Origin: Amoebophrya sp. A120
Lineage: Eukaryota > Protista > Dinoflagellata
Reading direction: 5' to 3'
Length of the DNA: 64,000 nucleotides
Assembly: GCA_905178155.1 (NCBI GenBank)
Contig: CAJINV010000007.1
Coordinates: forward strand, 2,523,151 to 2,587,150
Below, piece after piece: positions 7,883-41,697 of this stretch. Numbering within the stretch: the stretch's first letter is position 1; every line of letters begins with the position of its first letter. The position numbers and the translations under genes were made by a program. Under the pieces are notes generated by a model. The model was not told the origin of the DNA. It ran no database searches and saw only the letters and a program-made list of their open reading frames with translations.

Positions 7883-10800
7883 TTACGGGCGGAGCTGCAG
7901 CTGTGCTGCTTGTGCGAGCGCCTCCCGTGCGTGCTGCGGAGGTTGCCACTTGTTGATGTCCGGTGGCAGGTCAAGTGGGTTACTCGGGTCTACGGGCCCG
8001 GCAAAGGTGTCGGCCCAAATGCTGTCTTGGTCGGTGTGGTTTACCCACCGTCGGTTCCAGTGAAAATCTTCGTGCGTCATCCAGTTGAAGGATCGCATGA
8101 GTGACGTGCCGTCGCTGCGCCCACTGGCCGTAACCTGCGAAAAGACCTGGATGATGGGCAGTGCAAGCACGAGGTAGAGCAGCAGCACCTCCGCGAGGAA
8201 GGAAATTTTCGCGACACCAATGGGCAAGTCCGACATGAGTAGCAGCGGCAACTGGGTTCCGAAAGCGAACACAACGAAGGCGGCCCAGGCGAGTAGCAGA
8301 ATGACTGCTCGGATCGGCTGCCAGACCCGTCCCTCGGACCGGAGGACGTTGATCGACCAGGTGTAGCCGGGGCATTTTACCTCGTTTGAATGGAAGTTTA
8401 AACTGCTCCCGTCTGCGTCCCCGTCGTCGTCCGAAAAAAAGGAGACGCATTCGCCGTAGAAAAGTTGGTAATTCTCAAAAAAGAGCAACGCCGTCATGGC
8501 GAGCATGGCGGAAGTCCCGTGCAGAGCATGCATGTACCCCCAGAACGTCGTGTCCACTTCGGTGTCAAGTTCTTGAAGCCTCAGCTGCGCTTGTTGCGGT
8601 TGGTCCGTACTGCGGCCGCGATCCCCGTCGTTTAGGTCGTTACTCACTTCGACAAAAGACACGGGCTCCCAGATGTTCGGCTTCAGCGTTTCAACCGTCA
8701 TCATTTCTTGCTTCGCGGCCACGAGCGCCTCCGCCTTCGCTCTCGCCCGCGCATCTTCCTCCGCCTGCAGTTCCCCCGGCGAGGCCGAGATGTCCAAGGT
8801 GGCGCGGGCGAGGCTGTCCTCTCCGCGTTTGTCGACGACACTCTTGCTGAATTTGTTTCCCACGCTCGCAATGATCTTGTTCTTCGCCTCATTTTTCGCG
8901 TCCAGCCTTGCCTTGCTACTTTGCTTGTTGAGCAACTGACTACGCGGACTAGAAGCGCTTCTGGGTGTGGTAGCAGCAGCAGGAGTGCCACCACTGCTGT
9001 AGTTGTCACTGTCCCCGCCTTGCTCGATCTCCGGAATCAGGGCAACATTCTTGTTCGGAAGATGACCTGGGGAAGTTTTACTTATGCTTGGCAAAAGGGA
9101 ATCCAGCTGCGAATCAACATCTCCATCCGGAGGGCCTCCACCAGCAGCCTCCCCCTCACCGCGCCTCCTGTTGCTGCCGGACATCTTTCCGCCGCGGCCA
9201 CCTATGTGCGTCAAAGTGCCGTCTGGGCGCGGGACGACTGACGGGCTTGACGTGGCAAAACGGGACGAGGACAACCACCGGGGCTGGGTTTTATCCGTCA
9301 AACTGGGGATCGCACCGGTCAGAAAGAACCCCACCGCGGGCACCACGTACCACACTGAGCGCCAGAAGTTCTCGGGCGCGGAGTTCACCAGCGGCTGCAG
9401 GAGGCCGTTGTAGTCCTTGTCTGTCATGGGAATCCAGGCCGGGTAGATGTGCAAGGGGTAGGCCGTGAAAAGCAGGGCGAGCGCGAACAGGATTAGGGAC
9501 ACGCTCCACAGCTGCCCGGCCACCGTGTCCTGCCGCTGCGTCACGTTGGACAGCGTGCCTTTCTTGGGAAAGTTCTCCGGCAACAGGTGCGGCCGGCTGA
9601 ACACGATGTTGCACGGCAGGCAGGTGCCCAGGATCAGCATCAGGTACGTGACGGAGAGCAGAACGAGAATATGGGAGTGTCAGAGTTGAAATCGACAAAG
9701 TTGAAATGATTTGTCATGCATAAAATGCGACACAAAGACTGACTCTATTGCTGAAGGCGCAAGGGAGGCAGATTCTAGTGCTGGCAAGGGAAAGGGTCAA
9801 GAAGTGGGCTGCTGACTAGCATGACAGGGAGCAGCCTCCTTGCCCTAAACAGCATGACAGACTTGCTTCAGAGGCCAGGAAAATTTGTCATGCGCCGATT
9901 GGAAACTGTGGGTCCAACTGGTATAGATTTTATGCATCACACACAAATTATTTCAACTTTGTTAATTTCAATCCTGACAGTTCCATAGAGGACCATCACG
10001 TCGTAGTTCTCCGCTTCTAGAAGGACGTTTGCGTGCTATCAACTGTAAAAGTGTCTGGGTCTGGAAGAATGCGCGATTTGTAATGCAGTTTTTCCATGCC
10101 CCATGAGGTCTGGAATGCAGGGCCTAGCATGACAGATTCTGCGAGATCTCTATCATGCCTATCCTGCATGAGAAACTCCTTGTCACCTTGGTCAAAAATG
10201 CACGGCTTTATTTGGTACTCATGCAACACAGATTGTTGCATGATCCAGATTTAGCATGACAAACATGCATTCTTCCAGACTGCTCAGACATTTTTACATT
10301 TGATACGTGCAGTTTCAACACCAATTGCTCATCCGTCACGGCTATGCACTGCAAATATGAAGTTTTATGTGTATGTCTGGGTCTAGAGCGTTCGAACTTG
10401 TAATGCAAATGCTGGAGCATGCGAACTGGTAAATGTAAGAACTTTGCGTGCTGCATAACCAAGAAAAGTCGCAGCCTCCTTTGTCAACAAGCAAAAACGC
10501 AGTTTCTCATGAGGGCTGCGTATGAGAAAGCGTTCTGGGTGGCAGCTGTCATGCTCGGCTGCCATCGGAACTGTTTCCTTTCCATATCCATGGCCATGCT
10601 GCGCATTTTAGCATCACAAGTTTCCAGAAGCAGACATTCATATTCATAAGCATTTGCACTGCATAACGGCCCGCTCGCGCATCCGCTTGAAAACAACCGC
10701 GAGATTTTCGTTCAACGCGGTGACGTTGTTCAGCAGGTAGTCGAACCTCTGCCACTCCTGCGGGGTCACGTCTGGGGGGTGCCGCAGCCCGTAGGCCAGC

Positions 10801-38951: not shown

Positions 38952-41697
38952 TTAGTTATCCTGCCCGTGCAAAATCCGTGAGTACTCTGGTTTGACCTTG
39001 CCCAACGTCACGTCCCTTCTGCGGTTGATTGCCGATCGGGCAATCTTGGGGTGTAAGTCGACCGGTTTCCGACGGCCAACCGGCTCGTAATCGCGGAGCA
39101 CTTCGCCTGTCGTTTTGTATGATTTATGATGTTTCGTCGATGAAGATGCGGCTTTTCAAAAAAGCGAAACGCTTTCACTTTGAAACACGTCCATGTGTAA
39201 GTGAAAAAAGTAAAGTGATATGACACCATACGTAGTAGACGGTGAGCGAGCTGTGAGTATTTCACTACACCAAGATAAAGAACGACCGCTTTAGTGTACC
39301 CTTGTAAACTTGGAATGGTCTGTAGATTCTGTTTTCCGGGTCCTGGACCCACTCGGACCAGTGCGCCAGCCACCCGGACAACCGCGGGATCGTAAAGAGA
39401 ACGGTGAACACGTCCGTTGGGATGCCCATGGCCTTGTAAATCAGGCCGGAATAGAAGTCGACGTTTGGGTACAACTTTTTCGACTTGAAGTAGTCGTCCG
39501 AGAGAGCGATCTTCTCCAACTGCATCGCCACGTCAATCAGCGGGTCGGGGCCGGTGAGCGCAAAAACGTCGTCCAGAATCTTGCGGACGACCTTGGCGCG
39601 CGGGTCGTACGACTTGTACACCTGACGAAGATTATTTTGTTCTTTTGCACAACGATTCAACCAACTTGTGATGAGGAGTTGCAGAGCGCTCTGCTGGAAA
39701 TTATTACGCACCGGCATGGAGAATAAAAAATTTACCACCCACGATAAACTTCCCCGTCAGACAAAACTACATATCATGATACGCAATTCGACGAAATATT
39801 ACAGTGTAAAGTCGAAATACAAGAACTGTACCCGATGCCCGAACCCCATCAACTTCGCCTTCTTGTTTTTCACCTTCGCGATAAATTCGTCCACCTTCGA
39901 CACATGCCCAATCGAATCCAGCATCCGCAGCACCGCTTCGTTCGCGCCACCGTGCCTCGGCCCATACAAGGCGCCGCAGGCTCCGGCGATCGCCGTATAG
40001 ACGTCCACGTTGGAGGAGGCCAAGTGGCGCATGGCCGACGTCGAACAGTTCAATTCGTGCTCGGCGTGGAGCAGGAGCAAAACGTCCATCGCCTTCACGA
40101 GCGTCGGGTGTGGTCGATAACTCGGTCCCTCGTTCATCACGTCGAGCATGTAGAGAAAATTCTCCGTGTACCCAAGATTTTCATTTGGCGCCACCATGGG
40201 TCTTCCTAGTCTGTGCCTGTACGCCATGGCGGCGAGCGTGGGGCCGGCGCCGATCACACGGGCGATCTGCTTGTTGCGTACTTCAGCGGACTTGTAGCTG
40301 ATTGTAGTTTTTGTTCACTAGTTGCAAGTTTATGTTTAATATCTTCTTCGTAGTGCGAAGTAGAAGTAGCTAAGGTCATATTCATGTCTTCTTCATCCAA
40401 CGTGAGCGTGAACGTAGCAGCTTGAATTTGAAGTAAAATCAAATAGAGAACTAGATGTCCGCCTCCAGCAACATCTTCTTCTAGGTTGTTCTCAAAAAAA
40501 TACATGTCCTGCCCCGCCAGCGCGGGATTTTGCTCCGGGTAAATCGTGCCCAGAGCCGCAAACGCTGCTGTGATCATCCCCATCGGGTGTGCGTCGTACC
40601 GGAAGGTTGCATGCATTTTCACCAAATCCTCCGACACGTATCACAAGAAAAAGTGTTCACGTTTACGGTCTTCACAGATTGCAGCCATGCATGATCACAA
40701 ATATAGCCCCCTAGTATGCAGGTTATGAATGAGGACAGATTTGGGCACGTTTTGCTTTTGTGATGCATTGCTGCATCACAAGTTCCAACAGTTCCGTAAA
40801 CGTATAAAATTTTTTCTTGTGATAACACGTGCACGTGTTCCATGATCGCCGTGTTCCACGACTTCAGCTGGCTCGCGTCGGGTAGATTTCCGTAATTCAG
40901 CAAATAGGCCACCTCCAGGTAGTTCGACTGGGCGGCTAATTGCTCGATCGGGATGCCGCGGTACCGGAGAATTCCCTTGTCCCCGTCGATGAAGGATATG
41001 GAAGCGTCAGAATTGAAATCGTCAAAGTTGAAATAGAAATAGTTTGTGACGCATATATAAAATGCTAGACGCAAAATGCCTGTCTTGCAGAGCAGGCAAC
41101 TGAGGCCGATTATACTCCTGCTTGGGGTGTGAGATAGAGCTGCTAAAATAGCATGACAAAAGCGGTCTTCTCTGCCCAAACAGCATGACAAATTGGATTT
41201 CCATGCTGCCTAAATTTGTCATGCGCAACTTGCAACCTGGGCTCCAGCTGGTATCGCTTTTTTGCATTACAGATTATTTCAACTTTGATGATTTCGATCC
41301 TGACACTCCCATACAGGAAATACGGGAGATACAGCACGTGGTGTTCATGTACCCCGGATCAAATGTTTTCAACGGGGCGCCGTTTGCGTCTTTCACTTGC
41401 TTCAGATCCGTCGCTTTGATGGTGTTGTTCGTGATGGCGAGCTTGTAGCTGGTGATGTGGGAGTACGTTTGTGATGTTGTCGTGCACTGAAAAAAAAAGC
41501 CAATTTCGAATAACAAAAAAAATGCGGCTGCAGGATTTGTCACGCAGGTCTTCTTATACATCAACCAAAAATCTCAATCTATTATACCTTTTCCCATTCC
41601 TGTTATCCGTGATTGTAATTGTGTCGCCTCCACCTCCGCTGTCCGTCTGGCTCGCTGCGACGACCTGATTCGCGATCCGGTCGACGCGGTGCGCCAT
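38952..41697 (-). CDS. CS: citrate synthase, peroxisomal/glyoxysomal (type II-like), 7 exons
   Basis: [77 protein letters not shown] introns 41449-41587, 40298-40503, 39622-39831, 39107-39299; introners 40992-41313 and 40634-40824; PTS2-like N-terminal RVDRIANQV. Confidence 0.93.
40634..40824. mobile_element. TIR introner, family D (191 nt)
   Basis: TIR tatcacaagaaaaa...acgtttacgg; perfect TSD acacg; joins HVHV-SEDL. Confidence 0.9.
40992..41313. mobile_element. TIR introner, family B (322 nt)
   Basis: 39-nt TIR tatgg.ag.gtcag.at.gaaatc.tcaaagttgaaata; TSD aagga/cagga; restores conserved [10 protein letters not shown]. Confidence 0.92.

Follow-up and report, generated by a model that had tools for sequence, protein, structure and literature searches.

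Introner elements of the dinoflagellate Amoebophrya sp. A120, which parasitizes marine algae, have been described as repeated families of inserts with inverted repeats that start with TAT, direct repeats of 3–5 nt, a predicted hairpin and inconsistent splice dinucleotides, and their typical motif, TAT followed by 7 nt and AAA, is a consensus rather than a definition (PMC7789003; statements on published work refer throughout to the parts of each source covered here). The same study found the U2, U4, U5 and U6 small nuclear RNAs of A120 but not U1, left the intron border of the introners unknown or variable, and stated the removal of tens of thousands of non-GT-AG introns in Amoebophrya as an open question. 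We examined a 64,000-nt stretch from this organism (contig CAJINV010000007.1, positions 2,523,151 to 2,587,150 of the forward strand; hereafter the window, numbered from its first letter) and, within it, three copies, A, B and C, of an element that begins with TATGG and ends with CCATA. These copies resemble the published introners in their organism, TAT inverted repeats, direct repeats, predicted hairpin and membership in repeated families, and differ from the published consensus in having TCA at positions 11–13, with AAA further in. The covered parts of PMC7789003 give no orientation count, whereas here 31 copies of the family were found in one direction relative to their host genes and 23 in the other, and a single cut register is proposed. 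We consider it probable that these copies represent a short, TAT-bounded, transposon-like family that lies in either direction in coding sequence and is removed from pre-mRNA both ways by means of its mirror-image ends.

Introners in both orientations are already on record. In Polarella glacialis, classes 1, 2, 3, 6, 7, 8 and 10 form introns in either orientation (bioRxiv 10.1101/2020.10.14.339549), and the same preprint cites both-orientation introners in Aureococcus anophagefferens. Like the present family, these elements are derived from DNA transposons, occur in either orientation and take part of the intron boundary from the target duplication; unlike it, they use GT, GC or GA together with AG sites, have a constrained duplication (GHNN, AGGH and others) and lean towards one orientation, whereas the duplication of the A/B/C family is close to unconstrained and no orientation lean was detected. 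The nonconventional introns of euglenids and the introns of Fritillaria borealis (PMC11282704) share with the present elements inverted repeats that join the ends, duplication-like repeats at the junction, non-GT-AG borders and a likely origin from miniature inverted-repeat transposable elements (MITEs). Euglenids pair CAG with CTG at +4 to +6 and −8 to −6, and Fritillaria favours AG-AC and AG-AT, whereas the ends here are TAT and ATA, at the proposed positions +2 to +4 and −7 to −5, and the borders are free. The TA..TA termini found here are also those of IS3EU/GingerRoot elements, whose duplications are usually 6 bp (PMC10045372) and not 5 bp as in the window, where RNA joints skip the element and 5 nt. 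Introner surveys allow for orientation or filter by it (PMC9860276, PMC12130899), and PMC12130899 mentions elements of A120 that have inverted repeats as well as integrase-like frames. In the covered parts of the open-access literature we found neither an orientation count nor a fixed register for the TAT elements of Amoebophrya; subscription papers, supplements and survey tables may hold one. The elements themselves and both-orientation introners elsewhere are already published. What is added here is a count of orientations and a cut register open to testing; that such inserts are indifferent to direction extends their description only modestly.

Three copies of the family in minus-strand genes

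Copy A (318 nt, 9670–9987) is flanked by the 5-bp duplication GAGAA/GAGGA with one mismatch (9665–9669 and 9988–9992), copy B (331 nt, 31828–32158) by a perfect GACTT/GACTT duplication (31823–31827 and 32159–32163), and copy C (317 nt, 40997–41313), which lies inside the citrate synthase gene, by AAGGA/CAGGA. An earlier sequence-only reading had reported all three, and they are present where it put them, with the difference that its starts count the left 5-bp duplication. The copies are short, non-coding and bounded by terminal inverted repeats (about 38–60 nt in this family) and a target duplication, as MITEs are, and their pairwise identities are 71–77%.

Alignment of the interiors, after removal of 50 nt from each end and with the coordinates of B shifted by one base, showed that B is inverted relative to the other two copies. 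The A and C interiors scored 87 on the same strand and 24 when reversed; the corresponding scores were 21 and 72 for A and B, and 22 and 136 for B and C, compared with top scores of 24–27 in 300 shuffles. Similarly, BLASTN aligned B to C on the minus strand (72% across 358 nt, E 4e-44) and A to C on the plus strand (E 9e-33). The interior of B is the reverse complement of those of A and C, as the sequence-only reading had proposed; the pseudo-open reading frame in which it had seen this inversion does end in FCHA.LAALS, but it starts with LSCCLG, from a TTG codon, and not with MSCCLG. B and C each fold into an end-to-end stem (z of −9.4 and −6.5, respectively), an outcome expected of any inverted repeat.

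When unspliced, A, B and C introduce 3–10 stops into every minus frame, and removal of the element with one duplication leaves a single long minus-strand frame in each case (136+595, 100+338 and 85+183 codons). Two further claims of the earlier reading, that the three host genes are all on the minus strand and that their frames are restored, are borne out. The host gene of A (7883–11020, upstream end approximate) is a membrane-protein-like frame with no Pfam match, which also holds TAT elements at 10037–10305 and 10343–10665. The host gene of B (27894–32440) has an N-terminal AMP-binding domain (PF00501) and reads as a single open frame (about 1,250 codons) once B and the TAT elements at 30543–30872 and 29586–29697 are removed; two long frames become continuous when the element at 30543 is taken out together with one duplication. 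A protein of a close relative, P0121, is continuous over the site of B, and this site is probably empty in the source of P0121; that protein appears to be an unspliced genomic frame, judging from P0123, which runs into a GT-AG intron. The second exon of gene B, used as a query among longer proteins, returned no homologs. The host gene of C (38261–41762) encodes citrate synthase in 7 exons, with 4 GT-AG introns and 2 TAT elements, C and 40639–40824. Its product, taken from the exons of RNA-like contig X1, matches P0122, a record named Amoebophrya sp. A120, at 494/494 amino acids, and this 494-aa protein is 85–91% identical to proteins of relatives. Over about 48 kb (4527–52062), all examined host frames are on the minus strand, which fits the one-way gene clusters described for the genus.

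Orientation counts and joints in RNA-like contigs

A pattern built on the repeat ends found 86 loci, and the 80 listed are all in one metagenome assembly. The loci yielded 75 complete copies, two of which were dropped (cut off, or with a 1-of-5 duplication); of the 73 scored, 54 had a callable host strand. Thirty-one of these are oriented as A and C and 23 as B (p = 0.34), and stricter margins for the strand call gave 27:20 and 23:16. Read-through stops are present in 54/54 callable copies. When the left and right frames were called separately, they matched after removal in 17/17 and 12/14 copies, including 9/9 and 6/7 copies whose removed length cannot be divided by 3. At one locus (L078), a Glyco_transf_10 domain is split by a reversed copy, with a match from residue 1 at model position 118 of 182. 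Perfect 5-bp duplications flank 27/31 and 19/23 copies by orientation, or 46/54 in total.

The two orientations are also intermingled by descent. In a tree built from 57 copies, orientation switched 17 times, compared with 18.5 switches after shuffling of the labels, and 145 of 500 shuffles were equally low. The nearest relative came from the opposite orientation class in 29/57 copies, and nearest-neighbour identity was 0.908 for both classes (p = 0.82), indicating equal divergence. Among clusters of TAT elements in general, 10/14 contain both orientations; one cluster (15:13), in which the elements at 20590 and 46354 are grouped together, may be a product of chaining. Orientation therefore seems to be reset with every insertion, with no selection on orientation visible in the A/B/C family, and such resetting would be expected of a double-stranded DNA step rather than of reverse splicing. 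Near-equal orientations imply, moreover, that no one-way interior signal is required and that the information lies at the symmetric ends.

Removal was assessed with RNA-like contigs from four runs (X1–X4), the RNA status of which was guessed by the tool, though GT-AG introns are skipped in them. Two stretches of the window were compared with these contigs; they contain 11 TAT elements, and A lies outside both. At nine of the 11, the contigs skip the element and exactly 5 nt. Eight of these nine belong to families other than that of A, B and C, namely 15300–15480 and 16037–16222 (both with a mismatched duplication), 20590–20934 (two duplication mismatches), 21290–21520, 22497–22733, 29586–29697, 40639–40824 and 22924–23194, the last from a second large family, of which 10343–10665 is a reversed member in the same cluster. 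The ninth is C, where the joint runs from 40992 to 41315 and removes 322 nt. None of the nine joints is GT-AG. The short element at 29586–29697 (112 nt) keeps the frame and contains no stop, yet it is spliced (X4, depth 2), showing that removal is independent of a stop. The remaining two elements, 30543 and B, have no RNA cover in X1–X4, where gene B is nearly uncovered overall and lacks cover over 30204–31411 and at the B junction. Contigs that skip TAT elements skip GT-AG introns too. A further run, X5, retains GT-AG introns, and a single contig across 28000–31857 retains the 29586 element; neither C nor 40639 had a joined form among the X5 matches listed. We infer that reversed copies, B included, are spliced as well; the open frame of gene B, the splicing of its 29586 element and the continuity of P0121 over the B site lend this indirect support.

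Element ends, cut register and other elements in the window

The sequence-only reading had concluded that the splice information is symmetric and lies in the inverted repeats, and not in a directional branch point or polypyrimidine tract. The first part is supported by the indifference to orientation seen in the 31:23 count and in the tree; the second does not follow, because an inverted repeat would present either signal in both orientations. Indeed, CTGAC lies close to the 3′ end of the transcript in 28/31 and 22/23 copies by orientation (50/54), the repeat carrying CTGAC at both ends. CTGAC was rejected as a universal branch point, being confined to the A/B/C family; the branch motif yUnAy is found in the last 45 nt of 2/8 other spliced elements and in 1/7 GT-AG introns. 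The seven GT-AG introns seen in the RNA contigs (19951–20173, 35106–35331, 36762–36903, 39107–39299, 39622–39831, 40298–40503 and 41449–41587) all close with CAG, preceded by an A-rich stretch, and lack a pyrimidine tract (0.35–0.6 pyrimidines), so that a contrast in pyrimidine tracts is empty here.

Ends were counted over all families in 171 elements, 38 of 209 having been dropped, and the 20 window elements among them were set to the minus strand. AG at duplication positions 3–4 was present in 10/171 and G at position 5 in 61/171, with both in 4; together with the absence of GT-AG from all nine RNA joints, this sets the elements apart from the near-canonical splice sites of Polarella and Aureococcus. 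At position 5, G stood in 59/166 where codon position would predict 48, a weak excess (p = 0.07). These counts show that neither GT nor AG is needed at the element borders. Common to all families, and mirrored at the two ends, are TAT, which was imposed by the search pattern, G or C at position 4 (164/171) and A at position 13 (161/171). The ends thus appear to carry the signal, as sequence or as structure.

Mismatched duplications bear on the exact cut, which can be expressed as k, the number of bases retained from the upstream duplication copy. Five spliced elements with such duplications gave k of at least 2, at least 3, at least 3, at least 4 and at most 4, and only k = 4 fits all of them; the lower bound of the register comes from 20590–20934, with an RNA joint from 20584 to 20935 that has one ambiguous base. 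On these few cases, we hypothesize a single register, N+TAT...ATA+NNNN, in which the intron would extend from one base before TAT to four bases after ATA. With k = 4, TAT falls at +2 to +4, and the donors of the local GT-AG introns read GTA in 6/7 and GTAT in 3/7. A proxy based on codon-likeness, applied to further mismatches and with the cases known from RNA included, pointed in the same direction (p = 0.055), with ratios of 15:6 at positions 1–4 and 1:4 at position 5.

The window as a whole contains no fewer than 21 TAT...ATA elements flanked by 5-bp repeats, and the TAT...ATA pattern gave 20 matches in it compared with 0–1 in five block shuffles. Within the 5,153 nt of window elements the octamer GCATGACA is found 28 times (for example at 9712–9895), compared with 4 times in the 58,129 nt outside them; of 116 elements from other families, 82 contain it, and it can lie on either strand (60:75). 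It was rejected as a required splicing signal, as two spliced elements (21290–21520 and 40639–40824) lack it and it stands on either strand; it is a candidate transposase-binding site. A 159-nt segment (94%) is common to two otherwise unrelated elements (20684–20865 and 44753–44910) and, within 20590–20934, has on each side a copy of an 18-nt direct repeat that includes GCATGACA, so that it looks like a module nested at this motif. Elsewhere in the window, an intergenic element at 41811–42453 has 117-nt inverted repeats (94%) with inner palindromes and TAT/ATA-like ends and no 5-bp duplication, and a 1.1-kb element at 57689–58816 has 58-nt inverted repeats beginning TACAGC and is not of the TAT type. 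At 53800–54420, TGACACGCA repeats are densely packed and run in both directions, with several forming perfect inverted pairs, and an 18-nt tandem repeat at 61706–61861 ends in a gap of Ns, of which the window contains 718. A search of the window against Rfam gave 0 matches.

Proposed explanation and alternatives

Removal in both directions through mirror-image ends could be accounted for by the following steps. The elements would insert through a double-stranded DNA step, with a transposase acting in trans and at random orientation. Both cuts would be positioned by the end-to-end stem or by the end sequences, a fixed register would put TAT at +2 to +4, as in the local GTAT donors, and catalysis would be carried out by a spliceosome that lacks U1.

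A number of observations weigh against this reading. Orientation was counted in another assembly, with host strands assigned by a codon model for which this window served as the training set; 19 of the 73 scored copies were left out for an ambiguous host strand, and Pfam matches bore out the strand in only 10/99 of the flanking fragments, two of which adjoin reversed copies. In one other cluster the orientations are uneven, at 18:7 (p = 0.04, uncorrected). The RNA joint for the TATGG...CCATA family comes from one orientation only (C), with none for B or other reversed members, and the RNA-like contigs derive from at most two samples of one study. The register depends on one upper bound and one tight lower bound, and splice sites in A120 have been called variable relative to the hairpin (PMC7789003). 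Finally, G-U and A-C mismatches in the stems numbered 50:33 in one orientation and 15:42 in the other, thus tracking the element and not the strand of the host, and 65:75 when pooled, so that selection on RNA pairing was not seen in the family; the ratio was 83:86, again without excess, in 116 elements of other families. If anything, the test speaks against strict selection for RNA pairing.

The same result bears on an alternative in which equally direction-blind elements are removed by a non-spliceosomal enzyme that reads the stem, cleaving and rejoining the RNA at fixed offsets, in a tRNA-endonuclease-like or euglenid-like manner. The idea draws on the dispensability of GT and AG, on the strong stems of both orientations (z of −9.4 and −6.5), on the lack of a branch motif common to the eight other spliced elements (yUnAy in 2/8 within 45 nt) and on the similar offset pairing of ends in the nonconventional introns of euglenids (PMC11282704). 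A reader of structure would, however, be expected to leave a G-U bias on the transcribed strand, and none was found; TAT at +2 to +4 agrees with the local GT-AG donors (GTA in 6/7, GTAT in 3/7), and the repeat layout is also present in 15% of canonical A120 introns (PMC7789003). We regard such an enzyme as unlikely. It is more doubtful still that only one orientation is spliced well and that reversed copies, B among them, remain unspliced in genes that are silent or damaged. The four RNA-like runs barely cover gene B, and the mild A/C excess (31:23) and the 18:7 lean of the second cluster point the same way, but absent cover says nothing on expression. Reversed copies make up 43% of callable copies and are of the same age as the others, their stops would truncate long intact frames, and gene B is itself intact, at about 1,250 codons, with its 29586 element spliced.

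Two further possibilities dispense with splicing altogether, and we give both very little credence. The internal eliminated sequences of ciliates are TA-bounded and are removed precisely with one repeat copy, a likeness that would suit excision of the present elements from DNA in a somatic copy. The retention of GT-AG introns and of the 29586 element in X5 argues against such DNA excision, the matches listed for that run include no joint at C or at 40639, and the contigs without elements are also without GT-AG introns. Template switching by reverse transcriptase, on the other hand, is a known artefact where short direct repeats flank a stable stem, the very setting of these elements. Against it, citrate synthase needs the removal to yield a 494-aa protein that is 85–91% identical to those of relatives, and 9/9 joints remove the element and exactly 5 nt.

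If, as we consider probable, the family is removed from pre-mRNA in both orientations, its neutrality excludes one-way interior signals and argues for spread through DNA, since reverse splicing would fix one orientation. Mismatched duplications give an easy way to place the cuts exactly, and existing RNA data could allow this to be done genome-wide. Only tentatively do we suggest ruler-type splicing, in which cuts fall at fixed offsets from the palindromic TAT...ATA pair without the need for GU or AG and without regard to strand; we hold this possible but would not yet favour it. If true, an element inserted anywhere in a gene, either way, would be removed scar-free, and the code would amount to a splicing reaction that reads neither splice-site dinucleotide.

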